A DNA stretch of 64,000 nucleotides from a bacterium (GCA_043798995.1 JAZDOD010000008.1:119468-183467); one strand, 5' to 3'; counted from the stretch's first letter, positions 39,191 through 59,560 are shown. Translations and numbers: made by a program. The notes: a model not told the origin generated them from the sequence alone.

Positions 39191-39313
39191 TTGTCATTCC
39201 GGACTTGATCCGGAATCCAGATTATTTCTATGACAAATTATTTCACTGGATTCCTGCTCCCCGCTTTCGCGGGGACAAGTTTACCCCTGCGGAAGCAGGG
39301 GCAGGAATGACAG
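39191..39313. repeat. hairpin-repeat cluster (TGTC-hairpin-CCAG / CTGG-hairpin-GACA family), including a predicted three-way junction
   Basis: TGTCATTCCGGActtgaTCCGGAATCCAG, then CTGGATTCCTGC[CCCCGCtttcGCGGGG]...[CCCCTGCggaaGCAGGGG]GCAGGAATGACAG. Confidence 0.7.
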
Positions 39314-39333
39314 ATTATGTATTTTGTTTTCTT

Positions 39334-42129
39334 ATGAATATTTTAACAAAAATTTTAGGCGATCCGAATCAGCGGGTGATTGATAAACTTGAGCCGTTAG
39401 TTGAAAAAATTAATCAACTTGAGTCAAAATTTGAAAAATTAAGCCCCGAGGAATTAAAGGCGCAAACCGAGCTTTTTCAAGAGCGACTTAAAAAAGGCGA
39501 AACCCTGGATGAGCTTTTGCCCGAGGCCTTTGCCGCGGTGCGTGAAGCAGCCAAAAGGACTCTTGGTCAGCGCCATTTTGATGTTCAGTTAATCGGCGGC
39601 ATTGTGCTTCATCGCGGTGAAATTGCGGAAATGAAAACAGGTGAAGGCAAAACTTTAACGGCCACTTTGCCGGTTTATTTGAATGCTTTGACCGGCAAGG
39701 GCGTTCATCTGATAACAGTCAATGATTATTTAGCTCAACGCGATTCAGTTTGGATGGGGCAAGTTTATCATGCCTTGGGATTAACCATCGGCTGCATACA
39801 ACATGAAACTGCTTTTTTATTTGATCAGGCAGTGGAAAATTCCTTAAAACCCGTAAACCGTAAAGAAGCTTATTTGGCTGACATTACTTATGGCACCAAT
39901 AATGAATTTGGTTTTGATTATCTGCGCGATAATATGGTGGATGATTTAGAGAGGATGGTGCAAAGGGAACTACATTTCGCGATTGTTGACGAGGTTGACA
40001 GTATTTTAATTGACGAAGCTCGCACCCCGCTTATTATTTCCGCACCGGCCGAAGAAGGGACCGAGATGTATTATAAATTCTCCCAATTGGTTAAACGATT
40101 GAAAGAAAACGAGGATTACAACATTGATGAGAAAATGCGCGCGGCTACTCTGACCGAAGAGGGCATTAATAAAATGGAACGTTGGCTTGGCGTTGATAAT
40201 ATTTATACTGCCGGCGGCGTTCGGATGGTCCATCATATTGAACAGGCGCTAAGGGCTATGGCGCTTTTTAAACTTGATCGCGATTATGTTATAAAAGACG
40301 GCGAAATAATTATTGTTGACGAATTTACCGGTCGGCTGATGTTTGGCCGGCGTTACAGCGAAGGGCTTCATCAAGCCATTGAAGCCAAAGAAGGAGTGCC
40401 AATCCAGCGCGAATCGCAGACACTGGCCACTATTACTTTTCAGAATTATTTCCGGCTTTATGAAAAATTGGCCGGTATGACCGGCACGGCCGTAACCGAA
40501 GCCGAAGAATTCGCCAAAATTTATAATTTAGAAGTTGTAATAATTCCGACCAATAAACCAATGATCCGGCGCGATTTAGCTGATAGAGTTTATCGCAGTG
40601 AGGCCGGAAAATTTCAAGCAGTAATTGAAGAAATTAAAATTCATCATCAAAAAGGCCAGCCGCTTTTAGTTGGCACTATTTCTATTGAAAAAAATGAATT
40701 TTTAAGCCAGCTGCTTAGCCGTGCCGGCATTGCGCATAATCTTTTGAATGCCAAACAGCATGAAAAAGAGGCGCAGATTATCGCTGACGCCGGTAAAATC
40801 GGGGCTGTGACTATTGCCACCAATATGGCCGGCCGCGGTGTGGATATTATCCTTGGCGGCAGGCCGCCCGCGGAACTAATAACTAATAACTTACAACTTA
40901 CAACAGAGCAAAAGGGGAAATTGACAAAATGGCAGGAGGAGCACGATAAAGTGGTGGCATCAGGGGGGTTGCACATCATCGGTACTGAACGCCACGAATC
41001 GCGCCGCATTGACAATCAGTTGCGTGGTCGCAGCGGCCGTCAGGGTGATCCGGGGAGTAGCCAGTTTTATGTTTCTATGGAAGATGATTTAATGAGAATT
41101 TTCGGCGGTGAAAGAATGAAAAATTTAATGACCACTCTCAGAGTGCCGGAAGATATGCCGATTGAAAACAGAATGGTTTCCCGCTCAATTGAATCAGCCC
41201 AGAAAAAAGTGGAGGCCCATCACTTTGATATTAGAAAACATTTGGTTGAATATGACGACATTATTAATAAACACCGGGAGGTAATTTATAAAAAGCGTTG
41301 CGAGATTTTAGAAATAGTGAAAGCCGAAGAGGAAGAAAAAGCCGAGGAAAAGCTGCATGATGAAATTTTGAAAATGGTGGAAAAAGAAATTGAGCAGATT
41401 GTTCTTTTTCATACCGATGAATCAAAAGGCGACTGGAGTTTGAAAGAAATTTATGAGGCGGTCAAGACGATTTTTCCGGTTACCCAGGAGTTAGAGCTTA
41501 GAATTGAAGAAATTAGCCAAGATAAAGGCCAACTGGGCGTGGCTGAAATTAGAACGAAAATCATTAATTATTTATTTGATTTGGCGCATAAAGCGTATGA
41601 ACAGTTGGAAAATAAGGTTCTTACCAACAGCAATGATCCAAAATTGATGCGGGTAATTGAAAAAGGCATACTGCTTAGGGTGATTGATACGCTTTGGATT
41701 GAACATTTGGAAGCAATTGACCACTTGCGCACCGGCATTGGGCTGCGCGGCTATGGCCAGCGCGATCCTTTAGTTGAATATAAGAAAGAAGCTTTTCGCA
41801 TATTCACTGAACTGGTGAATTTAATTCAAAAAGAAGTGGTCTATAGTATTTATAAAATCAGCTTTGCCCAAAAAATCGCGCCATCTTTGATGCAAACTGA
41901 CGCTATTAATGTTTTGGCGCCAAGCAAAACCATGGAAAAAGGAACCGATCGCTGGGCTCAAACGCCGCTTACTAAAGAGGCAAACCAGCGCAGCCAAGAT
42001 TCAATTCCCGCCAAAATGCGCGATGCTGCCGGCCAAAAAGTCGGTAGAAACGATCCGTGCCCATGTGGAGCGACTAAATCAGACGGTCGTCCGATTAAAT
42101 ATAAACATTGCCATGGTAAGGGTGCTTAA
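39334..42129 (+). CDS. secA: preprotein translocase ATPase SecA
   Basis: Walker A (MKTGEGKT), DEAD-like DEVD motif, HIIGTERHESRRIDNQLRGRSGRQGDPG and a C-terminal Zn motif CPCG...CHG. The ORF-track start at 39205 is an artefact of the repeat. Confidence 0.9.
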   Translation: MNILTKILGDPNQRVIDKLEPLVEKINQLESKFEKLSPEELKAQTELFQERLKKGETLDELLPEAFAAVREAAKRTLGQRHFDVQLIGGIVLHRGEIAEMKTGEGKTLTATLPVYLNALTGKGVHLITVNDYLAQRDSVWMGQVYHALGLTIGCIQHETAFLFDQAVENSLKPVNRKEAYLADITYGTNNEFGFDYLRDNMVDDLERMVQRELHFAIVDEVDSILIDEARTPLIISAPAEEGTEMYYKFSQLVKRLKENEDYNIDEKMRAATLTEEGINKMERWLGVDNIYTAGGVRMVHHIEQALRAMALFKLDRDYVIKDGEIIIVDEFTGRLMFGRRYSEGLHQAIEAKEGVPIQRESQTLATITFQNYFRLYEKLAGMTGTAVTEAEEFAKIYNLEVVIIPTNKPMIRRDLADRVYRSEAGKFQAVIEEIKIHHQKGQPLLVGTISIEKNEFLSQLLSRAGIAHNLLNAKQHEKEAQIIADAGKIGAVTIATNMAGRGVDIILGGRPPAELITNNLQLTTEQKGKLTKWQEEHDKVVASGGLHIIGTERHESRRIDNQLRGRSGRQGDPGSSQFYVSMEDDLMRIFGGERMKNLMTTLRVPEDMPIENRMVSRSIESAQKKVEAHHFDIRKHLVEYDDIINKHREVIYKKRCEILEIVKAEEEEKAEEKLHDEILKMVEKEIEQIVLFHTDESKGDWSLKEIYEAVKTIFPVTQELELRIEEISQDKGQLGVAEIRTKIINYLFDLAHKAYEQLENKVLTNSNDPKLMRVIEKGILLRVIDTLWIEHLEAIDHLRTGIGLRGYGQRDPLVEYKKEAFRIFTELVNLIQKEVVYSIYKISFAQKIAPSLMQTDAINVLAPSKTMEKGTDRWAQTPLTKEANQRSQDSIPAKMRDAAGQKVGRNDPCPCGATKSDGRPIKYKHCHGKGA

Positions 42130-42222
42130 ATTTAAGAAAAAAGCAAGCGGAGTCCACCAAAGCCTTGGCGTCGGCGGATGGGTCAGGTAAGAAATATAAA
42201 AAGTGTTGCGGGAAATAAAATT

Positions 42223-42651
42223 ATGGAACAAAACAAGCCAAAAGTTGGTGTCGGCGTGATGATTCTTAAGGATGGCAAGGTTTTGCTTGGCAAAAGAAAA
42301 GGATCGCACGGAGAAGGAGAATATGCTTTCCCTGGCGGCCACCTTGAGTATATGGAATCTTTTGAGGATTGTGCGAGGAGGGAGGTTAATGAAGAATGCG
42401 GCATTGAAATTAAAAATATCCGATTCCAGTTTTTAGCCAACATAACGAAATACGCCCCCAAACACTATGTGCACATCGGATTATTAGTAGATTGGAAAAG
42501 TGGCGATCCTAAAGTATTGGAGCCAGAGAAGTCGGAATCATGGGATTGGTATGAGCTTGATAAATTACCGCAGCCGATGTTTGAGATGTGTAAATTAGCC
42601 ATTGATAGCTATAAGACTGGCAGGAATTATTATGATGTTCCTGCGGACTAA
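42223..42651 (+). CDS. NUDIX hydrolase
   Basis: Nudix box GGHLEYMESFEDCARREVNEECGI. Confidence 0.7.
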   Translation: MEQNKPKVGVGVMILKDGKVLLGKRKGSHGEGEYAFPGGHLEYMESFEDCARREVNEECGIEIKNIRFQFLANITKYAPKHYVHIGLLVDWKSGDPKVLEPEKSESWDWYELDKLPQPMFEMCKLAIDSYKTGRNYYDVPAD

Positions 42652-42672
42652 GAAATAAATATAAGAAGTGCC

Positions 42673-43137
42673 TTGGGGCGTAAAAATATGCCAAAATTTA
42701 AACCCAAACCGGGACAAATTGATTTTAGCCAGGCTCGTTGGGCGCCGGTGATTAATTGCGTGGTAAAATACAAAGATAAAATTTTAATTGTCCAGCGAAG
42801 CCAGGATTCTAATTTTTATCCCGGCTACTGGAACGGCATTTCCGGCTTTTTGGACGATGATAGAAGTTTGGAAGAAAAAGTCAAAAAAGAATTACAAGAA
42901 GAATTGGGGATTGAGCAGGCAAATATAATCTCAATTCGTTTGGGAGCAATTTTTCACGAAGATGCGCCAAAATATAATAAAACCTGGATTGTTCATCCGG
43001 TTTTGGTAGGGGTGGCAACAGACAAAATTAAACTTGATTGGGAGGCGCAAAATTATCAGTGGGTTACTCTCAAAGAAGTAAAAAATTTCAATTTATTGCC
43101 GGGATTTGATAGGGTGTTAGAGAATTTGTTTAATTAA
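42673..43137 (+). CDS. NUDIX hydrolase (second, divergent)
   Basis: GFLDDDRSLEEKVKKELQEELGI. Confidence 0.6.
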   Translation: MGRKNMPKFKPKPGQIDFSQARWAPVINCVVKYKDKILIVQRSQDSNFYPGYWNGISGFLDDDRSLEEKVKKELQEELGIEQANIISIRLGAIFHEDAPKYNKTWIVHPVLVGVATDKIKLDWEAQNYQWVTLKEVKNFNLLPGFDRVLENLFN

Positions 43138-43142
43138 CAACC

Positions 43143-43233
43143 TGTCATCCCGCACTTAATGCGGGATCCAGAACTTGCCCTTGTTAAAGTAAGGAACTAT
43201 CAAAACTGGATTCCTGCTTTCGCAGGAATGACA
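43143..43233. repeat. MITE-like composite of two inverted hairpin-repeat units
   Basis: TGTCATCCCGCActtaaTGCGGGATCCAG ... CTGGATTCCTGCtttcGCAGGAATGACA. Confidence 0.7.
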
Positions 43234-43286
43234 ATCTTTTTATTATTTGATTTTTTTTTAAGTTTGTTGTATATTTAAAATAATAT

Positions 43287-44030: not shown

Positions 44031-44164
44031 CAGGTTTAGTTAAAAGTTTAAAGTTTAAAGTGAAAAGTCAAAGTCCAAAATTAAAAATTATTGCTAAAAG
44101 CTAAAATTTTAACTTGAAAATTTAATTTTTAACTTTTCATTTTTAACTTTTAACTATTTATTTT

Positions 44165-44746: not shown

Positions 44747-44766
44747 AATTCTATACCCTTTAAATT

Positions 44767-46485
44767 ATGAAATTTTTGACTCCTTTTTTTAGAAAATTAT
44801 TATTTCGCAAATCAGATCAAAAACCCAAAGCCAAAATTCGCTGGCTTGTTTTTGGTTTATTTATCATAGCACTTTTAGTAGCTGCCTTTGATTTTCCGTC
44901 TTATTTTAATGGGGGCGTTGACTGGATTAATGCCAAGACCAGTTTGGGGCTACCCAAGATGTATGATAAACCGTTTAAATTGGGGCTTGATTTGCAGGGT
45001 GGCACTCGTTTAATTTACGAAGCTGATGTTGCCAACATTCCGGATACTGACCGTAATTCAGCCATGGACGGAGTGCGTGATGTTATTGAAAGACGCGTTA
45101 ATGCCTTTGGCGTTTCTGAACCGATTGTTCAGACCAGTAAAACCAGCGGCCAGTGGCTGGTGGTAGTTGAATTAGCCGGCATTAAGGACGTTAATCAGGC
45201 CATAAAAATGATCGGCGAGACACCTCTTTTGGAGTTTAAAGAAGAAAATCAGCCAACTCAAAAGGAATTAACGCCAAAAGAGCAAAAAGAACTGGATGAT
45301 TATAACAAAAAAGCCGAGGAAAAAGCAACAGAAATTCTGAAAGAAGCTCTCAAGCCGGGAGCCGATTTCGCCGAATTAGCTAAAAAAAATTCAGAAGATC
45401 CTGGTTCGGCCCAAAGTGGAGGCGATTTAGGGTTTTTTAAAAAGGGGCAAATGGCGCCGGAATTTGAAAAAGCCGCTTTTGAATTAGGCAATGGGGAGAT
45501 TAGCAAAAATTTAGTTCAGTCAATGTTTGGTTATCACATTATTAAAAGGGAAGAATCGCGCGGGGGAGCACAACCGGACGGTACCGATACCACCGAAGTC
45601 AGAGCCCGCCATATTTTAATTAAAACCAAGTCTAGGGCTGACTTTCAGCCAGAAGCTCCGGCTTGGCTTAACACTCAACTTTCCGGCAAACATTTAAAGC
45701 GTGCTTATGTTCAGTTTGATCCTAATACCCAGGCGCCGGAAGTGAGTTTGGAATTTAATGATGAAGGTAAAAATTTATTTGCCGAAATTACTTCACGTAA
45801 TATCGGCAAGAAAGTAGCTATCTTTTTAGACGAAACGCCAATCAGTATTCCCACTGTCCGTGAGGCAATTAAGGAAGGCAAGGCTATTATCAGCGGCGAT
45901 TTTACTTTAGCCGAAGCTAAATTATTAGCTCAACGGCTTAATGCCGGCGCACTACCCGTGCCGATTAAATTAGTCAGTCAAAATACAGTCGGGGCGACCC
46001 TAGGCAGTATTTCGCTTGAAAAAAGCTTAACCGCTGGTTTTATTGGTTTGGTGGCCGTGGTTTTATTTATGATTTTACTTTATGGCCTAAATGGTCTTCT
46101 GGCTGATTTCGCCCTTTTAGTTTATGGCGTAACAACCCTGGCAATTTTTAAATTATTTGGTATTACTTTGACTTTAGCTGGCATTGCCGGTTTTATCCTT
46201 TCAATCGGGATGGCTGTTGATGCCAATATTTTGATTTTTGCCAGAATGCGCGAAGAAAAAAAATTGGGCAAAAGCGGTTTTCAACTTATTGAAGACGGCT
46301 TCAAACGAGCCTGGCCCTCCATTCGCGACAGCAACATTGCTACTATAATTACTTCTTTAATTTTAATCTGGTTTTCTACCAGCGTTGTTAAGGGTTTTGC
46401 CATAACTTTAATTCTCGGCGTTTTAGTCTCAATGTTTACCGCTATTGTTGTGACGCGATTACTGCTTAAAGCATTTAGAAGTTGA
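44767..46485 (+). CDS. secD: protein-export membrane protein SecD carrying an embedded PpiC/parvulin-type PPIase domain
   Basis: SecD P1 head and C-terminal 6-TM segments. The internal block ADFAELAKKNSEDPGSAQSGGDLGFFKKGQMAPEFEKAAFEL...MFGYHIIKRE is a parvulin signature. Confidence 0.8.
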   Translation: MKFLTPFFRKLLFRKSDQKPKAKIRWLVFGLFIIALLVAAFDFPSYFNGGVDWINAKTSLGLPKMYDKPFKLGLDLQGGTRLIYEADVANIPDTDRNSAMDGVRDVIERRVNAFGVSEPIVQTSKTSGQWLVVVELAGIKDVNQAIKMIGETPLLEFKEENQPTQKELTPKEQKELDDYNKKAEEKATEILKEALKPGADFAELAKKNSEDPGSAQSGGDLGFFKKGQMAPEFEKAAFELGNGEISKNLVQSMFGYHIIKREESRGGAQPDGTDTTEVRARHILIKTKSRADFQPEAPAWLNTQLSGKHLKRAYVQFDPNTQAPEVSLEFNDEGKNLFAEITSRNIGKKVAIFLDETPISIPTVREAIKEGKAIISGDFTLAEAKLLAQRLNAGALPVPIKLVSQNTVGATLGSISLEKSLTAGFIGLVAVVLFMILLYGLNGLLADFALLVYGVTTLAIFKLFGITLTLAGIAGFILSIGMAVDANILIFARMREEKKLGKSGFQLIEDGFKRAWPSIRDSNIATIITSLILIWFSTSVVKGFAITLILGVLVSMFTAIVVTRLLLKAFRS

Positions 46486-46518
46486 AAATATAAAATTAAA
46501 ATGACAAAAAATGTCATA

Positions 46519-46614
46519 ATGTCATTGCGAGTCCAGCCCTTTCCGAATAAAGGGCTGGGCGTGGCAATCTCATTAATTACTAATTTGTCATGCTGAACTT
46601 GTTTCAGCATCTCA
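46519..46614. repeat. hairpin-repeat units (two)
   Basis: TGTCATTGCGAGTCCAGCCCTTTccgaataAAGGGCTGGgcgtgGCAATCTCA and TGTCATGCTGAACttgTTTCAGCATCTCA. Confidence 0.65.
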
Positions 46615-46702
46615 ATTAAAATTAGGTTTAATTAAGTTCACATAAAATCCAATCAGAGATCGAATATACAAAAACACATCACCTAAAAACGAGTTAGGTG
46701 AA

Positions 46703-47251
46703 ATGCTTGCTTATTTGTATACGAATCATATGAAAAAAACTATATTAAAAATTGCCATAATCGTTTTTGCATTACTTCTATTATTTAGTTTGTCAACATA
46801 TACATGGTATATTGGCGTTTTTGTAGGATTACTTTTTTCAGCAATGCCATTCCTCATATCAATCATTACCTTAATAATTGGTATTATTATTTTCGTTACT
46901 CGCAAAAAGATATTATTAGCATTATATTCGTTGATGATAATCATAACAATTATATTGAGTTTTTTCATCGGATCATATATTGGGGAGCTTAAAGAAAAAA
47001 ATACCGCTAAGAATGCCGAGGAAGTTATAGTATTGTTAGAATCTTATAAAATTAAACACAACGAATATCCGGAAAATATTTTATTGTTATTTTCTGATTT
47101 TCCGGACAGCAAAGTTAAATTCAAAAATATTACTTATAATTATATAAACGGCAAAGAATATGAACTATTTCTTAATACAACAAACTGTGGAAAGATATAT
47201 ATAAACAGAACAACAGAACAAAAATGGGATTCTTTGCCATGTCTTCCATAA
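46703..47251 (+). CDS. hypothetical membrane protein inserted between secD and secF
   Basis: 3 TM segments and a C-terminal soluble domain. Hairpin repeats lie on both sides. Confidence 0.4.
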   Translation: MLAYLYTNHMKKTILKIAIIVFALLLLFSLSTYTWYIGVFVGLLFSAMPFLISIITLIIGIIIFVTRKKILLALYSLMIIITIILSFFIGSYIGELKEKNTAKNAEEVIVLLESYKIKHNEYPENILLLFSDFPDSKVKFKNITYNYINGKEYELFLNTTNCGKIYINRTTEQKWDSLPCLP

Positions 47252-47413
47252 ACAAGCAAGTACATCGCCTAACACCGAATAAACGGAAAAGTCCTCGGTT
47301 CGAACTTTTCGCAAATTTTCTTCGCTACGCTTCAGAAAAACTTCGTTTATTCGGATATGTTAGACGAAATAAATTTTATAACCCCCCTTATTTTCTAATT
47401 AACCTCCATTCAA

Positions 47414-47442
47414 CAGATCCCGAAACAAGTTCGGGATGACAG
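47414..47442. repeat. hairpin-repeat unit whose ATGACA end supplies the secF start codon
   Basis: CAGATCCCGAAacaagTTCGGGATGACAG, with the secF ATG at 47436. Confidence 0.65.
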
Positions 47443-48413
47443 ACAAGAAGAATATGTTCAATATCATTGGCAAAAAAAATTATTACTTCATTTTTTCCGG
47501 CGCTTTGTTTGTTTTAAGCGTGATTGCTTTATTCTTATGGGGTCTTAGAATCGGTATTGATTTTGTCGGCGGCAGTTCCTTGGAGGTAGAATTTGCTAAT
47601 GCTAATCGTCCAGACAGCCAAGAAGTAACGGAAGCTCTTAAAGATTTTAATTTAGGCGAAATAATTGTTCAGCCGGTAGCCGAGCAAGATATGATTTTAA
47701 AATTAAAATCAATTGATGAAGAAACTCATCAGAAAATTTTGGAAAAATTGCGCGGTTTGATTAAAACCGAAAGCGCTGTCCAGCAGAATAAAGACAGTCA
47801 AACGTTAGCCAGCGCAAATCAAAAGCCGGAATTGATTGAAAAACAATTTACTTCCATTGGCCCGACTATTGGCAAGGAATTAACCCGAAAAACCATTTGG
47901 GCCCTGATTTTAGCGAATATTTTAATTACCATTTACATTGCTTTTTCTTTCCGTAAAGTTTCCAAGCCGGTTCCTTCATGGCAGTATGGAGTAGCCGCTG
48001 TTTTGGCCTTGATTCATGATGTGATTATCACTTTAGGCGTTTTCGCCTTTTTGGGTCATTTCTTTAACATTGAGATTGACGCTTCATTTATTGCCGCGAT
48101 TTTAACCGTGATTGGTTTTTCAGTTCACGACTCAATCGTTGTTTTCGACAGAACCAGAGAAAATTTAATTAAGACCGTCCAGCAGTTTGAAGAAACTGTA
48201 AATTTCAGCGTTAACCAGACATTAGGCCGTTCAATTAGCACCTCAATGACGGCCATAATTGCAGTTTTAGCTATTTATCTTTTCGGCGGCCAGTCAACCA
48301 AATTAATCAGTTTGGCTTTAGTTATAGGTATTTTCTTCGGCACTTATTCTTCAATTTTTTTAGCCAGCCCTCTTTTGGTTGTTTGGCAAAAATTGAGCCA
48401 AAAAAGAAGATAA
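47436..48413 (+). CDS. secF: protein-export membrane protein SecF
   Basis: GIDFVGGSSLEVEF start, 6 TM segments, typical SecF length. Confidence 0.85.
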   Translation: MTDKKNMFNIIGKKNYYFIFSGALFVLSVIALFLWGLRIGIDFVGGSSLEVEFANANRPDSQEVTEALKDFNLGEIIVQPVAEQDMILKLKSIDEETHQKILEKLRGLIKTESAVQQNKDSQTLASANQKPELIEKQFTSIGPTIGKELTRKTIWALILANILITIYIAFSFRKVSKPVPSWQYGVAAVLALIHDVIITLGVFAFLGHFFNIEIDASFIAAILTVIGFSVHDSIVVFDRTRENLIKTVQQFEETVNFSVNQTLGRSISTSMTAIIAVLAIYLFGGQSTKLISLALVIGIFFGTYSSIFLASPLLVVWQKLSQKRR

Positions 48414-48562
48414 AATAAATTTAAAATTCTTTAAAAGTCCTAATATTAATTACAAAATAACCTCAAATTTAATTAAGTTCGCGTAAAAAGATACGATAAA
48501 GGTAAAGGTCGATTTTGCGAAAACACCCAAATTTTAATAATTTAATAATAAGGAAAAAAAAT

Positions 48563-48874
48563 ATGAGTATTGAAAATCCAAATTTAAACCAAGGGGAACA
48601 AAAAGAAATAATAAAAGAGGAGTTTGAGACCAGAAATTTTAATGACACTATTATGGTTAGAGTAACCGACCGTGGGAAAGAGATATTAAAAGAAAAAGGT
48701 GTTGATTATCTCAAGGAGAATGAGGAGGGCTGGACTGAAATAGCGCATTCTGATTTGATGAAAATTTTTGGCGAAGAGATGACCGTAGGTTCTTTTGTTG
48801 ATCATCCTAACAAAAAATTTCAGTTGCCTATCGAGCCAGATTACAGAATTAAAAAGCTAAAAGAAAAAAAATAA
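48563..48874 (+). CDS. hypothetical acidic protein
   Basis: Start placed at MSIENPNL, preceded by AAGGAAAAAAAA. No family recognised. Confidence 0.3.
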   Translation: MSIENPNLNQGEQKEIIKEEFETRNFNDTIMVRVTDRGKEILKEKGVDYLKENEEGWTEIAHSDLMKIFGEEMTVGSFVDHPNKKFQLPIEPDYRIKKLKEKK

Positions 48875-48934
48875 AAATAAAATTTGTTCTGAACAGCGAA
48901 CTTCACTTGCCTGCCTCGTCGAGTCAAGGCGGGT

Positions 48935-49090
48935 TTCAGAGTTCCTTCGCTGTGTCACCCTGAGATCGTTTCAGGGTCTCAATGAGATGCTGAAACAAGT
49001 TCAGCATGACAAGATGGGCGAATCAGCAGACGGATTATTTCTCAATCTCCCGAGGCGGGACAAGTAAGTTCGGGATGACATTAAATAAGA
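48935..49090. repeat. hairpin-repeat array (at least 3 units)
   Basis: TGTCACCCTGAgatcgtTTCAGGGTCTCA; AGATGCTGAAacaagTTCAGCATGACA; ...TTCGGGATGACA. Confidence 0.65.
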
Positions 49091-49362: not shown

Positions 49363-49389
49363 AAATAATATTATCTCAAATTATTATTC

Positions 49390-49515
49390 TATGTCACTGC
49401 GCACTTGCCTGCTCGCCGTAATTTTAATGCAGGCGGGATGCGGAATCCATACATTGTTTCTGTGAAAAAATAGATTATTGTTTAAAACTGGATTCCCGCT
49501 TTCGCGGGAATGACA
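49390..49515. repeat. hairpin-repeat units
   Basis: TGTCACTGCGCActtgCCTGC...GCAGGCGGGATGCGGAATCCA ... CTGGATTCCCGCtttcGCGGGAATGACA. Confidence 0.6.
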
Positions 49516-49705
49516 GATTAGAGATTAAAAATTTTCAAAGTTTTTTAATTGTGAGCAAAAGTTCATTTTTTTATTTTTTAAATACCCAATGATCTTGCCA
49601 GAAATTATTTTTTGCTATATATAAATAACTAATCAAAGCTCTTTAACAATCAAATAATTCGATATTTTATAAAAATGATAAAAACCATGTGAAAAGGAGG
49701 AGAAA

Positions 49706-51263: not shown

Positions 51264-52322
51264 ATGCAAATCCACTCTAAGTACCGGGGAATAAAAGGTT
51301 TTGTCAGAACCTACAATTATGGCCTAAAATGGTTGCATATGATTACTGACAAAGCCAAGTACAAAGCCCGAGTTTTGGCCTTTTGGTCAAAACACGGCCT
51401 TCAGGCCACCCTCGATGCCTTTCCGGCCAAACGTTCAATCTTGTTTTACTGGAAAAGAAAACTCAAGGCAGGCCAAGGAAAACTCGAATCTTTAAACAAC
51501 CAATCACGCACACCTCAAGCTAAAAGGAAACGCCTTTGGCCTGAGCCGGTCTTAGCAGAAATCAAGCGCCTAAGATGGACTTATCCTAATTTAGGCAAAG
51601 ACAAAATCTATCCTTTGCTCCTAAAATACTGTCAGGCCAACAATCTTAAATGTCCCACTGCCTCAACTATCGGCCGGTTGATTCAGGATCTGGGCGGACT
51701 GCGGATTTTCCCTCAAAAGGTAAGTCATTTTGGCAAGGTTAAACTACTAAAAAGAGCCAAAGTTTTTAGAAAACCCAAAGATTTTAAAGCAGAATACCCT
51801 GGTCATCTGGTCGCCTTAGACACGATTGAAAGGTTTATCCACGGCGTCAGGCGTTATGTTATCACCTTTGAAGATATTTACACCCGTTTCAGTTTTGCTT
51901 GGGCAACTAAAAGTCATGCCAGTTTGGCAGCTAAAGAATTCTTTAACTACTGCTGCTTAGTTTTTCCCTATCCCATAACCTTTGCCCTAACTGATAATGG
52001 CAGTGAATTTAAAAAACATTTTAACAGCGAGCTGATTAAGTTGCATATTGCTCATTATCATACTTATCCCAGGACTCCTAAAATGAACTCTCACTGCGAA
52101 AGATTCAACCGCACCATCCAGGAAGAGTTTGTTGATTACCATGCCGGTGAGTTGCTTGAACCGGCAAGCTTTAACCGCTCTCTGATGACCTGGCTCATCT
52201 GGTACAATACCGAAAGGCCGCACTTTGCTTTTCAAAACAAGCTTTCGCCTGTACAATACATCGTGTCTTTAGAAAGAGCTAAAAAACTAACCGAGTCCAA
52301 AGTAGGGTGGACGCATACATGA
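51264..52322 (+). CDS. DDE transposase with integrase-core (rve) domain, IS481/IS3-superfamily-like
   Basis: N-terminal HTH. Catalytic pattern D(LVALD)...D(LTDNGSEF)...E(HCERFNRTIQEE), plus YPRTPKMN. Confidence 0.75.
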   Translation: MQIHSKYRGIKGFVRTYNYGLKWLHMITDKAKYKARVLAFWSKHGLQATLDAFPAKRSILFYWKRKLKAGQGKLESLNNQSRTPQAKRKRLWPEPVLAEIKRLRWTYPNLGKDKIYPLLLKYCQANNLKCPTASTIGRLIQDLGGLRIFPQKVSHFGKVKLLKRAKVFRKPKDFKAEYPGHLVALDTIERFIHGVRRYVITFEDIYTRFSFAWATKSHASLAAKEFFNYCCLVFPYPITFALTDNGSEFKKHFNSELIKLHIAHYHTYPRTPKMNSHCERFNRTIQEEFVDYHAGELLEPASFNRSLMTWLIWYNTERPHFAFQNKLSPVQYIVSLERAKKLTESKVGWTHT

Positions 52323-52699: not shown

Positions 52700-52810
52700 C
52701 CCTTGATATCAGCGCTCGCCTCGCCTCGCCGTAGCCTTCGGCGAAGCGCGGGTCGGAAATGAATCCGCCAGCTGGTGGATTCATAACTCTCGCTCGCTTG
52801 ATAATAAAAA
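52700..52810. repeat. GC-rich MITE-like element (copy 2, inverted relative to 9175-9252)
   Basis: It shares both ends with copy 1. The interior holds the GAATCCGCCAGCTGGTGGATTC hairpin. Confidence 0.6.
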
Positions 52811-52967: not shown

Positions 52968-53230
52968 GCGCTTGCGAATCAAGGGAAATTACAAGCTCCA
53001 AACTCCAAATCCCAAACAAATCCCAATCTTTTGGGGTTATGGTCTAAGGTTTACGGTTTATGGAAGCCAGTTTAGTAAAATGGTTTAAGGTTTATAGTAA
53101 AAAATAATACCAAAGACAATAAACTATTAACCAAACCAGCAGCCATAAACTATAAACTAAAGACAAAAATCTTTAATTTATTTAGGTTAATTAGAATAAT
53201 TAGGTCAATTAGAAATTTTGATTGAAACAT

Positions 53231-53620: not shown

Positions 53621-53700
53621 ACCAATGCTAATAATATGCGAATTGAATGCGAATGCTACGAATATAATTTTAAAAATAAAGAATTGAATATTAAATTTTT

Positions 53701-54159: not shown

Positions 54160-54172
54160 AATAAATTTAATT

Positions 54173-54817: not shown

Positions 54818-54844
54818 TAATCATTAAAATAGATAAAAAAAATT

Positions 54845-55669
54845 ATGGAAAAAATACCTTTGCCCGCAAAAATCATTTTTGAAAAAACTTCTAATCAAAA
54901 TCAAATTATCGCAACCATAGAGCCGTTTTATCCCGGTTATGGCACGACTATCGGTAATAGCTTAAGAAGAATAATGCTTTCTTCTTTGACCGGCGCAGCT
55001 ATTACCGGCATTAAAATTAAAGGCATCCAGCATGAATTTTCAACCATTCCTAATATTTTAGAGGATTTTATTCAGATAGTTTTGAATCTTAAATTAGTTC
55101 GTCTTAAGGTTTTTACTGACGAAACTGTCAAATTAATTTTATCAGCCAAAGGCGAGGGCAAGGTTACCACTAAAGACATTAAGACAACCAGTGATGCAGA
55201 AATAGTTAATCCTAATCAGCCTATTGCCACCCTAACGGCCAAGAATGCCGAGCTTAACATGGAAATCTATGCCAAGCGTGGTCGTGGTTTTTGGCCGGTT
55301 GAGGAAAGGGCCGGCGAACAGGAAGTCGGCGTTATTGCCATTGATGCGCTTTTTACTCCGGTCAGAAAAGTAGGACTACGAATTGAAAATGTCCGGGTCG
55401 GACAGATGACCAATTATGAAAAAGTCGTTTTTGACATTGAAACCGATGGCACCATCCGTCCAGAGCAAGCTCTTCTTGACTCGGTAAAAATTTTGATTGA
55501 ACAATTTAATTTTTTTGTTGAAAATATTAAAATTGAAGAAGAAAAAAAAGCGCGAAAAGGAGAAAAGGCCGAGGCAGAAACCAAACCTAAAAAGACCAAA
55601 GAAAAAAAAGAAAAGAAAGAAAAAGAATCTTCTAAAGCTCAAAAAACTAAGAAAAAAGCAAAAAAGTAA
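54845..55669 (+). CDS. rpoA: RNA polymerase alpha subunit, N-terminal domain only, with a Lys/Glu-rich tail in place of the alpha-CTD
   Basis: An alpha-NTD of about 228 aa, followed by EEEKKARKGEKAEAETKPKKTKEKKEKKEKESSKAQKTKKKAKK. Confidence 0.8.
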   Translation: MEKIPLPAKIIFEKTSNQNQIIATIEPFYPGYGTTIGNSLRRIMLSSLTGAAITGIKIKGIQHEFSTIPNILEDFIQIVLNLKLVRLKVFTDETVKLILSAKGEGKVTTKDIKTTSDAEIVNPNQPIATLTAKNAELNMEIYAKRGRGFWPVEERAGEQEVGVIAIDALFTPVRKVGLRIENVRVGQMTNYEKVVFDIETDGTIRPEQALLDSVKILIEQFNFFVENIKIEEEKKARKGEKAEAETKPKKTKEKKEKKEKESSKAQKTKKKAKK

Positions 55670-55672
55670 AAT

Positions 55673-56023
55673 ATGAGACATCAAAAAAAAACGATAAAAC
55701 TCGACCGAAAGTCAGGACCAAGAAAAGCATTGCTTAAAAATTTAGCCATGAGCGTTATAATTTATGAAAAGATTACAACCACCGAAGCTAAAGCCAAAGC
55801 GGTTAAGCCGCTGGTTGAGAAATTAGTAACTTTAGGCAAGGAAAATAGTTTAGCAAATTATCGCAAGCTTCTTCGGTCTTTACCGACAGAAAAAGCGGCC
55901 AAAAAAGTTATAGAAGTTTTGGGGCCAAAATACAAAGAAAGAAAAGGCGGCTACCTCCGGCTTGTTAAGGTTATTTCGAGAAAAGGCGATGGAGCAAAAA
56001 TGGTAAGAGTAGAATTTGTTTGA
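55673..56023 (+). CDS. rplQ: 50S ribosomal protein L17
   Basis: MRHQKK..KL.R....R.ALL.NL. Confidence 0.9.
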   Translation: MRHQKKTIKLDRKSGPRKALLKNLAMSVIIYEKITTTEAKAKAVKPLVEKLVTLGKENSLANYRKLLRSLPTEKAAKKVIEVLGPKYKERKGGYLRLVKVISRKGDGAKMVRVEFV

Positions 56024-56077
56024 AAATTAATATATTATATATATACATACATATATTTTAAAATTAATTTTTAAAAA

Positions 56078-56665
56078 ATGTTTGGTAAAATTTCTTTTCT
56101 CACAGGTACTTTGTTTTTAATTTTAGTAGCTTTAATCGGCGGAGTTGTGATTTATTTCGTTTATGATGCTTCGTTAAACGAAATAACAAGAATTAATCAA
56201 ATCTACGCCAAAACTAAAGAAACCATCGCCGTAGATGTCTACTTTTGTCACAGCGGTCCGGGGGAAGCTCAGTCCTGCGAATGTGATTCGCCGGTAAGCA
56301 GACGAATTACCAGTTCACCGAATATGAAAATTGTTGCGACCGCGGCCATTAATAAATTTTTGGAAAGCCCGACCGTTAAAGAAAAAGAAGAGGGTTATTC
56401 AAGCGGTATTCCCACTAAAGAACAGATCGCAAGTTATAAGAGCGCTACGGGTAAAGAAATAGGGGATGAGATAAAACTTTTAGGGTTAACAATTGAAAAC
56501 AGCATGGCCACAGCTAATTTTTCTGAAGAATTATTGGCTTATGGCGGCAGTAGTTGCCGGGCCAAATCAATCAGCTCTTCAATTGCCAATACTTTGCTTC
56601 AGTTCAGCAGCATAAAAGGCGTCAAAATTTTAGTTAATAATAATCCAACCAGTTTACAGCCTTAA
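56078..56665 (+). CDS. membrane-anchored GerMN-like domain protein
   Basis: N-terminal TM followed by a GerMN-like pattern (VDVYF..., LLQFSSIKGVKILVNN). Confidence 0.5.
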   Translation: MFGKISFLTGTLFLILVALIGGVVIYFVYDASLNEITRINQIYAKTKETIAVDVYFCHSGPGEAQSCECDSPVSRRITSSPNMKIVATAAINKFLESPTVKEKEEGYSSGIPTKEQIASYKSATGKEIGDEIKLLGLTIENSMATANFSEELLAYGGSSCRAKSISSSIANTLLQFSSIKGVKILVNNNPTSLQP

Positions 56666-56673
56666 ATTAAAAT

Positions 56674-57048
56674 ATGAAAAAGAAAACCGTTAAAAATCCG
56701 GCAAAAAAAGTTTATACTTTAGATGCCACCGGACAAATTTTAGGTCGTTTGGCAAGTCAGACAGCCATCCTTTTACTTGGTAAAAATAAAGTTTCATATT
56801 TGCCTAATAAATTAAATCAAGACGAAGTAATTGTTAAAAATATCTCAAAATTGAGGTTTTCCGGCAAGAAAACCGAGCAAAAAAAATATTACCATTATTC
56901 CGGCTACCCCGGCGGCTTAAAGACAAAAAAGTTTGAAGAAATTTTTGCCAAAAATCCAGCCCAAATTTTTAAACAGGCCGTTTCCAAGATGCTGCCGAAA
57001 AATAGATTGAGGCCAAAACTTTTAAAACATCTTAAGCCTGAAAATTAG
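56674..57048 (+). CDS. rplM: 50S ribosomal protein L13
   Basis: LDATGQILGRLAS, YYHYSGYPGGLK and MLPKNRL. Confidence 0.85.
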   Translation: MKKKTVKNPAKKVYTLDATGQILGRLASQTAILLLGKNKVSYLPNKLNQDEVIVKNISKLRFSGKKTEQKKYYHYSGYPGGLKTKKFEEIFAKNPAQIFKQAVSKMLPKNRLRPKLLKHLKPEN

Positions 57049-57050
57049 TT

Positions 57051-57491
57051 ATGACAAAAAAAATTATTAAAACTGAAAAAGTCAAAACCAAAAAAGAAGA
57101 GCCGAAAGGCAATGTTTTTGCGGTTGGCAGAAGAAAATCGGCCATTGCTCAAGTTAGATTAACCCGAGGCAAAGGAGAAATAAAAATTAATAGCAAGACG
57201 TTAAAAGAATTTTTTCCTTATTTTGAATTTCAGCAGATTATTTTGGCGCCATTTAAGGCGGTCGGAGAAGCTGAAAAATACGATGCCCAGGCCAAAATTG
57301 TTGGCGGCGGCAAACACGGCCAGGCCGAGGCCCTACGATTGGCCATTGCCCGCGCTTTGCTTAAAATTGACTCTTCCTTCCGTCAACCACTAAAAAACCT
57401 TGGCTTTTTGACCCGCGATGCCAGAGTTAAAGAAAGAAAAAAACCCGGCCTCAAGCGCGCCCGAAGGGCACCGCAGTGGCAAAAAAGATAA
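57051..57491 (+). CDS. rpsI: 30S ribosomal protein S9
   Basis: GRRKSAIA..., GGG...QA.A...A.ARAL and KKPGLKRARRAPQ. Confidence 0.9.
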   Translation: MTKKIIKTEKVKTKKEEPKGNVFAVGRRKSAIAQVRLTRGKGEIKINSKTLKEFFPYFEFQQIILAPFKAVGEAEKYDAQAKIVGGGKHGQAEALRLAIARALLKIDSSFRQPLKNLGFLTRDARVKERKKPGLKRARRAPQWQKR

Positions 57492-57607
57492 TATCTTTTT
57501 TGCCAACCCTTCCGTAGCTTTACGCGAAGGAGGGTGGCCAGAAGAGGTAGTTTTTACACTATTAAACTAAACGAAAAATAATTTTATTAATTAATTTATT
57601 AAAATCT

Positions 57608-57895
57608 ATGGGAATTGAAAAATTAGAACCTCAAAAACCAAGAGAAATCATTGAAGTTAAAAACAAAGAAGAATGGTTTAATGAAGCGCCTCAATTAAAA
57701 GATTTTCTTGAAAAATTAACTGATCCTATCTTGGGTGCCGAGGAAATCGAAAAAATGCTTTTTGATTACAATGCTAAAGCAAAAGATTTGCCGCCAGGAG
57801 AAATAAAGCGTTACGCCTTCACCACTGAAAACGGAATTACCATCGAACTCTGTAAAGACGAAGAAGGAAAAATCGCTTTTAATTGGTCAAAATAA
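57608..57895 (+). CDS. hypothetical protein
   Basis: 95 aa. A clean terminator follows at 57910-57938. Confidence 0.3.
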   Translation: MGIEKLEPQKPREIIEVKNKEEWFNEAPQLKDFLEKLTDPILGAEEIEKMLFDYNAKAKDLPPGEIKRYAFTTENGITIELCKDEEGKIAFNWSK

Positions 57896-57909
57896 CATAT
57901 TTTTGACAA

Positions 57910-57938
57910 AAAAACGGCCCGATTTTAGCCGTTTTTTT
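57910..57938 (+). terminator. rho-independent terminator
   Basis: AAACGGCccgattttaGCCGTTTTTTT. Confidence 0.7.
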
Positions 57939-57979
57939 ATTTGACCGCAGTGGTTAATTTGACTATAATTTAAATAGTT

Positions 57980-59428
57980 ATGTCTGATGATTATCAATCA
58001 GGAAAAATCACCAAAAATACCGGCTATTTAATTGCCTCTTATATTGGACAAAATTTTTTGTCTTTTATTTTTTTTATTATCTTAGCTCGTTTCTTGGGAG
58101 TAGAAGATTTGGGTAAATATGTCTTTGCTTTTTCTTTTGCTACTCTTTTTAGCATCGCGGTTGATCTTAATTTAAGTCAAGTTCTCACTCGCGAGATAGC
58201 TAAATTTAAAGACAAGGCAGAAAATTATTTGAACAATATCATAGCTTTCAAGTTAATTACAGCGGCGCTAACTTATTTGACGGTAGTTTTGTTAATTAAT
58301 TTTTTGAATTACCCCGATCTCACTAAAATTTTAGTTTACCTTACAGGGTTAGTGATGATTTTAGATTCTTTTTCTTTAACTTTTTATGGCGCCTTGCGCG
58401 GCATTCAAAATCTCAAATTTGAGGCCTTAAGTACAATCTACGGTCAATTAATCATTATTTCTTTAGGCACTGTAGCTTTATTTTTAGGTTTACCTTTACC
58501 CGTCTTAATTGTAATTTATATTTTGGCCAGTTTATTTAAATTTATTTATTCCTTTTGGCAGGTTAAGAAAAATCTTAGGGTAAAATTTAGACCAAATCTT
58601 GACAAGTCAATTTTAAAATTACTTTTTGCTCTAGCCCTACCCTTTGCTTTAGCGGGAATTTTCAACAGAGTTTTTTATTATACTGATACAATTTTCCTTT
58701 CTAAATTAATAGGTGATGTGGCGGTTGGTATTTATAGCATTGCTTATAAATTAACTTATTCTTTGCAATTTATTCCCGCTGCTTTAGGAGCAGCCCTTTT
58801 TCCGGCTATGAGCAGTTTTTATCTTACTTCACCGGAGAACCTTAAAAAATCGTTTGAAAAATCATTTTTATATCTTTCGTTTATAGCCCTGCCAATTACT
58901 TTTGGCACTATTGCTTTAGCGCCAGAATTAATCAAAACTCTTTATAGCGAAAAGTATCTTGAGGCAATTTTACCACTTCAACTTTTGATTATGGCTGTTA
59001 TTTTTATTTTTCTTAATTATCCCATTGGCTCACTGCTTAATGCTTGCGATAGACAAAAAGCCAACACTTTTAATGTTGGGATAGCGATGGCGGCTAATAT
59101 TATTTTAAATATTATTTTAATTCCGCGTTTCAGTTACGTTGGTGCGGCAATCTCAGGTTTGGTAAGTCAAACTTTGTGGTTTGTTCTTGGTCTTTATCAG
59201 GCCAATAAATTGATAAAAATTGATAAAAAAATGTTGGGCAGAAAAACAGCTTTAATATTTTTATCGGCCGTGATAATGTTTTTTATGATTGTGATGTTTA
59301 AAAAAGTTAACTGGCTTTTAGCCGGTGGATTTTCAACTATTTTTTATTTGATGCTGATAATTGTGTTTAGAGTTATTAAGATAGTTGAAATCAAAGAGTT
59401 GATAAGCACGGTTATTAAGAAAACTTAA
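57980..59428 (+). CDS. polysaccharide/oligosaccharide flippase (MOP superfamily, Wzx-like)
   Basis: 482 aa with about 14 TM segments. Confidence 0.7.
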   Translation: MSDDYQSGKITKNTGYLIASYIGQNFLSFIFFIILARFLGVEDLGKYVFAFSFATLFSIAVDLNLSQVLTREIAKFKDKAENYLNNIIAFKLITAALTYLTVVLLINFLNYPDLTKILVYLTGLVMILDSFSLTFYGALRGIQNLKFEALSTIYGQLIIISLGTVALFLGLPLPVLIVIYILASLFKFIYSFWQVKKNLRVKFRPNLDKSILKLLFALALPFALAGIFNRVFYYTDTIFLSKLIGDVAVGIYSIAYKLTYSLQFIPAALGAALFPAMSSFYLTSPENLKKSFEKSFLYLSFIALPITFGTIALAPELIKTLYSEKYLEAILPLQLLIMAVIFIFLNYPIGSLLNACDRQKANTFNVGIAMAANIILNIILIPRFSYVGAAISGLVSQTLWFVLGLYQANKLIKIDKKMLGRKTALIFLSAVIMFFMIVMFKKVNWLLAGGFSTIFYLMLIIVFRVIKIVEIKELISTVIKKT

Positions 59429-59432
59429 GACA

Positions 59433-59560
59433 TTGTCATTCCCGTTCCGTATCAAGAGTCCGGGGATTGTCATGCTGAACTCGTTTCAGCATCTCAGAGA
59501 CCCTGAAACAAGTTCAGGGTGACACAAGAAAATGTCCTGAAATAAATTCAGGATGACCAT
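59433..59560. repeat. tandem array of four hairpin-repeat units
   Basis: TGTCATTCCCG...CCGGGGAT; TGTCATGCTGAACtcgTTTCAGCATCTCAG; GACCCTGAAacaagTTCAGGGTGACA; TGTCCTGAAataaaTTCAGGATGACCA. Confidence 0.7.

Follow-up and report, generated by a model that had tools for sequence, protein, structure and literature searches.

REP elements typically carry the 5′ tetranucleotide GTAG, and REP families are usually species-specific. Another kind of small palindromic repeat that invades compact genomes is the Rickettsia palindromic element (RPE, ~100–150 bp), for which we know of no dedicated nuclease. The described system closest to the repeats reported here is the NTS/dRS3 repeat of Neisseria, which belongs to a family called Ssn-related motifs (SRM; Chenal et al., Nat Commun 2025, PMC11893778). 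The NTS consensus is CGTCATTCCCGCGMAVGCGGGAATCYRG, and the pattern published for the family is HGTCWYN(0-2)YYVSBRHN(0-5)WNVSBRGN(0-2)RNCYNB (PMC11893778). SsnA needs GTC on the 5′ side and C on the 3′ side of the palindrome for cleavage and binding, its activity is abolished by changes to the stem sequence, and it binds ssDNA, not RNA (PMC11893778). Strand-specific binding and cleavage of ssDNA have been shown for the Neisseria and Wolbachia proteins only. An Ssn homologue is encoded by 81% of the genomes with more than 200 SRM copies, and in Neisseria the system limits recombination of incoming ssDNA (PMC11893778).

Here we describe a family of hairpin repeats in a 64-kb stretch of DNA (the window) from a small-genome, Patescibacteria-like MAG. 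Like the Neisseria repeats, these units are oriented hairpins of ~28 nt in which an 8-bp palindrome is preceded by GTC and followed by C. They also cluster around genes and, in other genomes, form a repeat–gene–repeat arrangement around a ~95-aa single-domain GIY-YIG protein and flank proteins homologous to those flanked by NTS (38% identity, E 1e-30). The two systems differ in their hosts, since the Patescibacteria-like group is absent from the main text of PMC11893778. They differ further in that the 64-kb window holds no ssn gene flanked by units and in that the present variants are known from sequence alone. We put at roughly 80% the probability that the units are DNA hairpin repeats of the SRM class, which includes Neisseria NTS/dRS3, that they flank GIY-YIG Ssn cassettes elsewhere, and that they are served by the cognate nuclease proposed below.

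Results and Discussion

The original prediction described about ten units of a dispersed hairpin family at seven or more intergenic sites. All seven sites and all the stems named in it are present, and the count rises to 16 oriented units in seven intergenic gaps between 39.2 and 59.6 kb; no hairpin unit was found in 1–39 kb of the window. The additions are degenerate or interrupted copies (49040–49080, 49392–49450, 59434–59467 and 59530–59558) and a third class, TGTCATTGCGAG...GGCAATCTCA, at 46520–46572. All 16 units are intergenic, eight in each orientation, and every neighboring gene lies on the + strand. The units are:

39192–39220 (+): type A′ unit, TGTC-ATTCCGGA-cttga-TCCGGAAT-CCAG (45.6 bits, model R1)
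39246–39312 (−): unit with stem ATTCCTGC/GCAGGAAT, its loop holding two more hairpins (39258–39275 and 39284–39301)
43143–43171 (+): unit TGTCATCCCGCACTTAATGCGGGATCCAG; fits the published SRM regex
43206–43233 (−): unit CTGG-ATTCCTGC-tttc-GCAGGAAT-GACA, convergent with the 43143 unit (untrained model match, 15.9 bits)
46520–46572 (+): type C unit, TGTCATTGCGAG-(long inner hairpin)-CGTGGCAATCTCA (DNA fold)
46586–46614 (+): type B unit, TGTC-ATGCTGAA-cttgt-TTCAGCAT-CTCA (51.8 bits, covariance model)
47413–47441 (−): type B unit with stem ATCCCGAA and an acaag loop, closing the secD/secF insert on the right (strict rule)
48953–48981 (+): type B variant, TGTC-ACCCTGA-gatcgtt-TCAGGGT-CTCA (strict rule)
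48983–49011 (−): type B unit with stem ATGCTGAA and an acaag loop; forms a convergent pair with the 48953 unit (strict rule)
49040–49080 (−): interrupted type B unit, TCTCA-ATCTCCCGA...TTCGGGAT-GACA (untrained model match, 14.9 bits)
49392–49450 (+): degenerate unit, TGTCACTGCGCA...TGCGGAATCCAT, enclosing a further hairpin (DNA fold)
49488–49515 (−): type A unit TGTCATTCCCGCGAAAGCGGGAATCCAG; matches the Neisseria NTS consensus at 27/28 positions and fits the SRM regex
59434–59467 (+): degenerate type A unit whose loop is enlarged, TGTCATTCCCG...CCGGGGAT (DNA fold)
59468–59496 (+): type B unit, stem ATGCTGAA, loop ctcgt (strict rule)
59496–59524 (−): type B unit with stem ACCCTGAA and an acaag loop; forms a convergent pair with the 59468 unit (strict rule)
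59530–59558 (−): degenerate copy of type B that ends TGACC, with stem TCCTGAA and loop ataaa (28.3 bits)

A strict rule demands GTC, then a loop of 3–9 nt closed by a perfect stem of 6 bp or more, and C after the stem. It matches the window ten times, and all ten matches are intergenic family members. Chance would yield 0.55 matches, the average over 40 dinucleotide-preserving shuffles, none of which gave more than 3. The covariance-model search that had been suggested as a check was run on the window: a model trained on nine units recovered three untrained members and gave no credible match over 1–39,000. The hairpins are also recovered when the sequences are folded as DNA, and so is the branched structure at 39246–39312. 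This segment had been described as a nested three-way junction (39246–39313), and the DNA fold computed for 39187–39318 is multibranched (z = −8.7). The inverted pair reported at 43143–43233 corresponds to the convergent units 43143(+) and 43206(−), and all three adjacent unit pairs in the window are convergent. The supposed tandem array of four units at 59433–59560 does contain four units, but these are not in tandem: two + units are followed by two − units, in convergent order, and the units at 59468 and 59496 jointly fold into one long hairpin. A second palindrome family is also found in the window, as an in-frame insertion in a protein-coding gene (60080–60110).

Read in their own orientation, the units share a frame made of (T)GTC, an 8-bp stem starting with A[T/C], a loop of 4–5 nt, the complementary arm and C(T/C)C; those of the window have stems of 7–8 bp and loops of 4–7 nt. 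All clean window units have GTCA before the stem, and nearly all have TC after it. The frame with GTC 5′ and C 3′ is found in 10/10 strict units and also in 231 and 174 units of other genomes. Stem positions are paired in 98.6% of cases, with double changes in four of the eight pairs, compared to 19–53% pairing in slid controls. For a set of 147 units pairing reaches 99.8%, and one-sided changes (G–U intermediates) occur in 1 of 1176 cells. The covariation of the units is DNA-like, strictly Watson–Crick and virtually without G–U. From such compensatory changes the original prediction concluded that selection acts on structure and not on sequence. The changes themselves are evident, and they occur in an oriented, dispersed repeat family, but they are confined to three of the eight stem positions. 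The other five positions, both flanks and the loop are conserved in sequence across phyla, and a near-identical unit of the CTTGT/ACAAG-loop type is present in more than 20 phyla.

The published SRM regex fits two window units, 43143(+) and 49488(−). The commoner window type, with the CTTGT/ACAAG loop, lies outside this pattern. So do most of the window units, namely those of types B and C, which have either ..C[T/C]GAA stems and a CTTGT loop or belong to the ATTGCGAG class. String searches of the literature with type B and type C cores found no relevant paper. The SRM/Ssn class is already described, but a search with its published pattern overlooks motifs of the CTGAA/CTTGT class. Since SsnA is inactive on changed stems, types B and C would need distinct cognate nucleases.

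The units are recent, lineage-specific insertions into tight gene junctions of the Patescibacteria-like host. This is apparent from a comparison with related loci (L202–L208), of which L202 is 95–96% identical in nucleotide sequence: the blastn alignment with L202 breaks exactly at the unit sites, and five relatives contain no strict (perfect) unit at the orthologous sites. The inserted segments are:

43130–43246: ~100-bp insert relative to L202, a convergent doublet that separates the NUDIX gene from yidC
46480–47450: ~970-bp insert from the secD stop to the secF start; the blastn alignment with L202 breaks here
48421–49080: ~660-bp insert between secF and the EF-Tu-D2-like gene, absent in L202
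59429–59568: 140-bp block of four units that separates the polysaccharide-synthesis gene from the GT4 gene

The secD/secF insert consists of two + units, an ORF for a 182-aa membrane protein (46703–47251) and a − unit. In relatives secD and secF abut, as TAAtATG in L202, L203 and L204 and as TAAtatATG in L206. The insert at 48421–49080 contains a 119-aa ORF (48515–48874) and a unit cluster, and the TGACA end of the unit at 49040–49080 forms its right edge, as judged from the junction with L202. In L204 the polysaccharide-synthesis and GT4 genes abut (TGAtATG) with no block between them. We also searched 137 convergent pairs for target-site duplications (offsets of 0–4 nt, lengths of 2–5 nt) and found no excess of direct repeats. 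Given that neither a target-site duplication nor another transposition footprint is seen, the argument for mobility is drawn only from presence and absence. RPE are likewise small palindromic repeats in a compact genome, and they are longer (~100–150 bp) than the units described here.

The link to Ssn proteins comes from other genomes. We examined 80 metagenomic loci that were chosen by protein similarity only and not by their repeats. In these loci a ~95-aa single-domain GIY-YIG gene is bracketed by units of the CTTGT/ACAAG-loop type in the order unit(+)–gene–unit(−), and in 51 of 75 loci it has a unit on either side. A unit occurs within 200 bp upstream of the gene in 60/78 cases and downstream in 59/77. 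The nearest upstream unit is in + orientation in 51/60 and the nearest downstream unit in − orientation in 55/59, with median gaps to the gene of 30 and 21 bp, respectively. The stems of these units are the same as those in the window. For example, a unit identical to the one at 39192–39220 sits upstream of the GIY-YIG gene in locus L146, and the type C frame, GTCATTGCGAG...GGCAATC, occurs 39 times in the fetched loci, in some cases adjoining Ssn-type genes. Convergent order also dominates among 91 adjacent pairs elsewhere (59 +−, 13 −+, 12 ++ and 7 −−), and solo units and gene-less convergent doublets are scattered through the intergenic DNA of other genomes.

In four unrelated genomes (L077, L090, L091 and L107), GIY-YIG ORFs (PF01541, E ~1e-16) are enclosed by type B units. 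The encoded proteins are ~95 aa long with GIY-YIG as the sole Pfam domain, and their catalytic Tyr/Tyr/Glu spacing of 11 and 58 residues equals that of Y6, Y17 and E64 in SsnA. GIY-YIG proteins flanked by NTS (L310, L250 and L211) match an HMM of the type-B-flanked proteins with E values of 6e-26 to 6e-32, and the two groups align without gaps. Length, domain content, residue spacing and this homology lend indirect support to a putative placement of the flanked proteins in the CDD family cd10448. A PDB sequence search with a type-B-flanked protein returned only distant UPF0213 structures and no Ssn entry. The sequences TGTCATGCTGAACTTGTTTCAGCATCTCA and NNNNNNNNTGTCATGCTGAACTTGTTTCAGCATCTCA are candidate ssDNA targets of the type-B-flanked GIY-YIG protein. 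Within the 64-kb window, we found no Ssn-type gene flanked by these units; the only GIY-YIG ORF (15899–16117) is a shorter, truncated-looking relative flanked by a different repeat. Two Treponema loci (L026 and L035) with + and − units ~1 kb apart were considered as autonomous elements and rejected, as ordinary lipoprotein/substrate-binding genes lie between the units. A viral scan for the CCCCCACACC palindrome was uninformative, as it returned generic GC-rich, terminator-like hairpins without GIY-YIG neighbors.

The original prediction compared the repeats to REP/BIME elements, which would make them REPINs mobilized by a RAYT, that is, by an IS200/IS605-like Y1 HUH transposase encoded elsewhere in the genome. 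Several traits are indeed shared: REPs and the present units alike are small palindromes outside genes, their conserved 5′ box is asymmetric, they often occur as inverted doublets, target-site duplications are missing as in IS200/IS605, a dedicated nuclease gene is flanked by repeats, and expansion is lineage-specific. The comparison breaks down at the box and at the partner. The conserved 5′ box is (T)GTC-A instead of GTAG, and the gene between convergent units in the 51 of 75 loci encodes a GIY-YIG nuclease, whereas REPs go with a Y1 HUH transposase; the present units also extend over more than 20 phyla. The partner supported by the data is not a RAYT but the ~95-aa GIY-YIG gene bracketed by units in other genomes. 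The statement that no RAYT lies in the window holds, as a Pfam scan of ~60 window ORFs found no Y1_Tnp and no other Y1/HUH transposase, although the window is only part of the genome. With phmmer we found no IS200/IS608-like ORF in the window or in 121 repeat-bearing loci, in what is a weak test. IS200/IS605 elements themselves have subterminal DNA hairpins that are recognized as single strands, strand-specific cleavage adjacent to these hairpins, and no target-site duplication, features that the units would share. In contrast to these elements, the units come without TnpA/TnpB, and the two ends are inverted copies of one hairpin. Mobilization by a RAYT is very unlikely.

The hairpins were also suggested to be structured RNAs, which could act as cis-regulatory hairpins, terminators or mRNA-stabilizing elements in the transcripts of the flanking operons. 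The hairpins are stable, their stems show compensatory changes, and they lie between codirectional genes, so that they are probably transcribed. However, an RNA element would not be expected eight times in each orientation among genes that are all on the + strand, or to be missing as a perfect unit from the orthologous junctions of relatives that are 95–96% identical in DNA. The strictly Watson–Crick covariation, with virtually no G–U, and the published binding of the nuclease to ssDNA and not to RNA (PMC11893778) also argue against RNA. No unit has an Rfam match at the gathering score, and with E ≤ 1 the best sub-threshold matches were chance-level miRNA models. A terminator scan called no unit terminator-like, and a tRNA scan found none. 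The structured-RNA alternative therefore has little to recommend it, and we consider it highly improbable.

Hardly credible is the idea that the units are MITEs of a classical DDE transposon such as the rve-type IS at 51264–52322: convergent doublets resemble terminal inverted repeats (TGTCA...TGACA) and the rve transposase gene is located within the same 20 kb, but the 137 convergent pairs show no target-site duplication, the rve gene has no flanking unit-like inverted repeats, and what such ends enclose in the full-length element is a GIY-YIG gene and no DDE transposase.

For hairpin repeats of the SRM class, a mechanism may be drawn by analogy to the experiments on N. meningitidis SsnA (PMC11893778). 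Replication, repair or DNA uptake would expose the single strands on which the hairpin forms. A cognate Ssn nuclease of the GIY-YIG type, encoded beyond the window, would bind this hairpin in a sequence- and strand-specific manner and would cut the DNA a few nucleotides before GTC. Convergent pairs would thereby be cut at their outer edges, once on each strand, and this arrangement would lend itself to excising or copying the cassette and its derivatives that lack the gene.

It is conceivable, if rather doubtful, that unit(+)–GIY-YIG–unit(−) constitutes an autonomous, pan-bacterial mobile element in which an ssDNA nuclease replaces the transposase. Gene-less doublets would then be MITE-like, and types A, B and C would cocirculate even in tiny CPR genomes. 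The unit ends could also carry passenger genes, as suggested by the ~970-bp insert with its 182-aa membrane ORF.

Conclusions

This analysis ties a common annotation nuisance, near-identical hairpins of ~29 nt that give rise to spurious small ORFs in many phyla, to the Ssn family of GIY-YIG ssDNA nucleases, and it extends the family of Ssn repeats to Patescibacteria-like genomes. The contrast between filled and empty gene junctions shows that the repeats are recent, which bears on the question of whether Ssn cassettes are mobile. Finally, the proteins flanked by type B units are candidates for new specificities in ssDNA cleavage.

Hairpin units in the window

Reading of the seven intergenic sites and enumeration of perfect hairpins confirmed the predicted dispersed hairpin family. 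The units consist of (T)GTC, an 8-bp stem opening with A[T/C], a 4-5-nt loop (most commonly CTTGT/ACAAG), the complementary arm, and C(C/T)(C/A)(A/G). Ten units in the window, all of them family members and all intergenic, pass a strict rule that demands GTC, a stem of ≥6 without mismatch, a loop of 3-9, and C; 40 dinucleotide-preserving shuffles contain 0.55 such units on average and at most 3. A covariance model trained on nine window units picks up three members outside the training set (49483-, 43201-, and 49038-), and scanning of positions 1-39,000 gave no match above noise. With degenerate and interrupted copies included, there are about 16 units, eight per orientation. Adjacent units are mostly convergent (+ then -), and the block originally described as a 4-unit tandem array actually runs + + - -. 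The stems are 98.6% paired with double changes in 4 of 8 pairs, against 19-53% pairing in slid controls. DNA folding yields the hairpins and also reproduces the nested branched structure at 39246-39312. The stems fall into three classes.

Stem classes among the window units
Type A: ATTCC(C/T/G)GC; NTS-like
Type B: A(T/C)NC(T/C)GAA; CTTGT loop
Type C: ATTGCGAG...GGCAAT; encloses a variable inner hairpin

The neighboring genes are housekeeping genes, all on the + strand (hpf, secA, NUDIX, yidC, a secD-PPIase fusion, secF, AIR-synthase-like, ribosomal proteins, and glycosyltransferases). The window SecF has a database entry from a MAG with 100% identity, and its named homologues, at about 50% identity, are from Patescibacteria/CPR.

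Match to a nuclease-associated motif

A full-text literature search with the type A core led to a study by Chenal et al. from 2025 (PMC11893778). The Neisseria repeat NTS described there, CGTCATTCCCGCGMAVGCGGGAATCYRG, includes dRS3 and has been generalized as the Ssn-related motif (SRM). Its nuclease SsnA, a 94-aa single-domain GIY-YIG protein (cd10448), binds and cuts the motif only as ssDNA, not as dsDNA or RNA. Cleavage depends most on the trinucleotide 5' of the palindrome and binding on the C immediately 3' of it; the motif typically occurs on both sides of ssn genes (PMC11893778). Unit 49488(-) is identical to NTS at 27 of 28 positions and is practically an NTS. This unit and 43143(+) match the published SRM regex, whereas type B and type C units do not. 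The frame common to NTS and the window, GTC and the 3' C, is kept exactly in all clean window units, including those that misfit the regex.

Link to GIY-YIG genes

Among loci selected by pattern, four unrelated organisms carry a small GIY-YIG ORF (PF01541, E ~1e-16) between two type B units, one upstream (+) and one downstream (-). The aligned proteins then served as query in a metagenome scan with protein similarity as the sole criterion. Among the best 80 of 470 relatives, a unit lies within 200 bp of the GIY-YIG gene upstream in 60/78, downstream in 59/77, and on both sides in 51/75 cases. The nearest upstream unit is + in 51/60 and the nearest downstream unit - in 55/59, at median gaps of 30 and 21 bp. 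Stems around these genes are the same as window stems (ATGCTGAA, ATCCTGAA, ACCCTGAA, ATTCCGAA, and ATCCCGAA); type C units also occur in such loci, some directly adjoining the gene.

To connect type B with the published family, we searched viral and prophage contigs with the type A core. Three of these contigs (L310, L250, and L211) have GIY-YIG ORFs between canonical NTS units (+/-), and the proteins match the HMM of the type-B-flanked proteins with E values of 6e-26 to 6e-32. The two groups align without gaps (38% identity, E 1e-30) and have in common a C-terminal REKxxKxWxRxWK(I/L)xLIE..NP motif. Residues Y10, Y21, and E68 of the alignment have the spacing of Y6, Y17, and E64 in SsnA. The window units belong to a superfamily of oriented hairpin repeats; in many phyla, repeats of this superfamily sit in inverted orientation on either side of a small GIY-YIG gene, making up a cassette.

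When GTDB was searched for the type B frame, with each species represented by one genome, at least 120 stretches matched. The matches listed come from Nitrospirota, Firmicutes, Melainabacteria, Cyanobacteria, Bacteroidota, Ignavibacteria, Elusimicrobia, Spirochaetes, Zixibacteria, Chloroflexi, Caldiserica, four proteobacterial classes, and many CPR lineages, and among them the type B consensus is identical across all groups. Viral contigs from IMG/VR commonly carry the type A core, with at least 120 stretches (L209-L328); among the matches listed for them, one exact type B unit has the stem ATGCTGAA. Prophage regions from hosts in the Proteobacteria may account for this.

Filled and empty sites compared with relatives

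Five contigs with SecF identities of 96, 94, 92, 89, and 73% to the window were compared, and none contains a strict unit. In blastn, the alignment with the relative L202, whose flanking genes are 95-96% identical at the nucleotide level, is interrupted precisely where the units lie, at 43130-43246, 46480-47450, 48421-49080, and 49367-49533. The junction of the secD stop and secF start reads TAAtATG in L202, L203, and L204 and TAAtatATG in L206, all contigs of relatives.

Unit-associated inserts missing in L202, the closest relative, and their ORFs
46480-47450: ~970-bp secD/secF insert; units (+,+), 182-aa membrane ORF, unit (-)
46703-47251: the ORF of this insert, predicted 182-aa membrane protein, no Pfam match
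48515-48874: 119-aa ORF within the insert at 48421-49080, no Pfam match

Both ORFs may be passenger genes. In L204, polysaccharide-synthesis and GT4 genes abut (TGAtATG) where the window has a 140-bp four-unit block. The secF/EF-Tu-D2 junction holds different insertions in the window, L203, L204, and L206, and the right edge of the window insert coincides exactly with the TGACA terminus of a unit. At this junction L206 (94% SecF identity) carries its own convergent type C doublet (2690-2790; TGTCATTGCGAG...CAATCTC and GAGATCGCC...CTCGCGATGACA), and L204 has other accessory genes, which makes this junction a hotspot. The window copies are lineage-specific insertions; as to polarity, parsimony favors insertion in the window lineage over five separate deletions.

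Other repeats and loci nearby

Several further features of the window were noted.

14678-14721: perfect palindrome, 20-bp stem, TTGTAATCAATTCTGATTAC aatt GTAATCAGAATTGATTACAA, preceded by TTGACA, between radC-like and nucleotidyltransferase genes; looks like an operator
15774-16181: cassette with the repeat-gene-repeat architecture of Ssn cassettes but another motif
15899-16117: 72-aa single-domain GIY-YIG ORF in this cassette, GTG start, Pfam E 2e-16
16230-24820: type I restriction-modification locus (HsdM fused to S domain, AAA_14/DUF4143 gene, HsdR); adjacent ORFs 18513-18953 and 18997-19962 resemble an AAA_15 ATPase split in two
37919-37956 and 60080-60110: perfect palindromes
44032-44149: AT-rich insert of ~118 bp relative to L202, between yidC and a Band_7 gene; outside the hairpin family
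51264-52322: rve-type (DDE) transposase gene, 352 aa, between the AIR-synthase-like gene and infA; missing there in relatives
52700-52800: GC-rich hairpin cluster after infA, CGCTCGCCTCGCCTCGCCG...TTCGGCGAAGCGCGGG...

The 72-aa protein shares 30% identity with an Ssn-type protein flanked by NTS but lacks the C-terminal motif. Another repeat, CCCCCACACCAATT, encloses its gene in two inverted copies (15774+ and 16168-), inside which lies a degenerate second pair (15802+ and about 15886-). The two perfect palindromes are gene-less doublets of this cassette, each formed by two inverted copies of CCCCCACACC(AAT/TAA), a motif found 8 times in the window versus 0.68 expected. The one at 60080-60110 lies in frame within a GT4 glycosyltransferase gene, contributing 10 residues that the 81%-identical L204 orthologue lacks. 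A search around the rve gene revealed no inverted repeats resembling the units. The cluster at 52700-52800, which resembles 4225-4275 of L203 at the secF/EF-Tu-D2 junction of that contig, may be another small repeat family.

Proposed mode of action and novelty

Across 147 distinct units from 80 metagenomic loci, pairing reaches 99.8% in a model-fitted alignment that favors pairing. In the same alignment, covariation at stem positions 2, 3, and 5 is confined to Watson-Crick changes, with 1 one-sided change in 1176 cells, and positions 1, 4, 6, and 8 are invariant. The proposed structured-RNA reading of the units is not supported. An Rfam search with the units gave no match, a terminator scan classed no unit as terminator-like, and the degree to which type B is conserved among phyla speaks for a sequence-specific partner that can be transferred, not for a local regulatory RNA.

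The suggested resemblance to REP/BIME elements holds for how the system works, but the units do not qualify as members, since they differ in both enzyme and 5' box. The window yielded no Y1 transposase, in line with the original statement that it contains no RAYT gene, and neither did 121 loci, the latter a weak test. Adjacent pairs outside the window are again mostly convergent (59 +-, 13 -+, 12 ++, and 7 --), and 137 convergent pairs give no sign of target-site duplication. Judging from the published biochemistry, the hairpins would serve as ssDNA sites that cognate Ssn nucleases cut just 5' of GTC; a convergent pair would be cut at its two outer edges, on opposite strands.

This kind of hairpin-repeat/nuclease system is already known from the 2025 study, and from dRS3 before. 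A literature string search for the type B and C core sequences returned no paper containing them. What is new is the member and a motif class missed by the published SRM regex, the occurrence of the motif in a Patescibacteria-like genome, a group absent from the main text of PMC11893778, and the clear filled-versus-empty unit sites.
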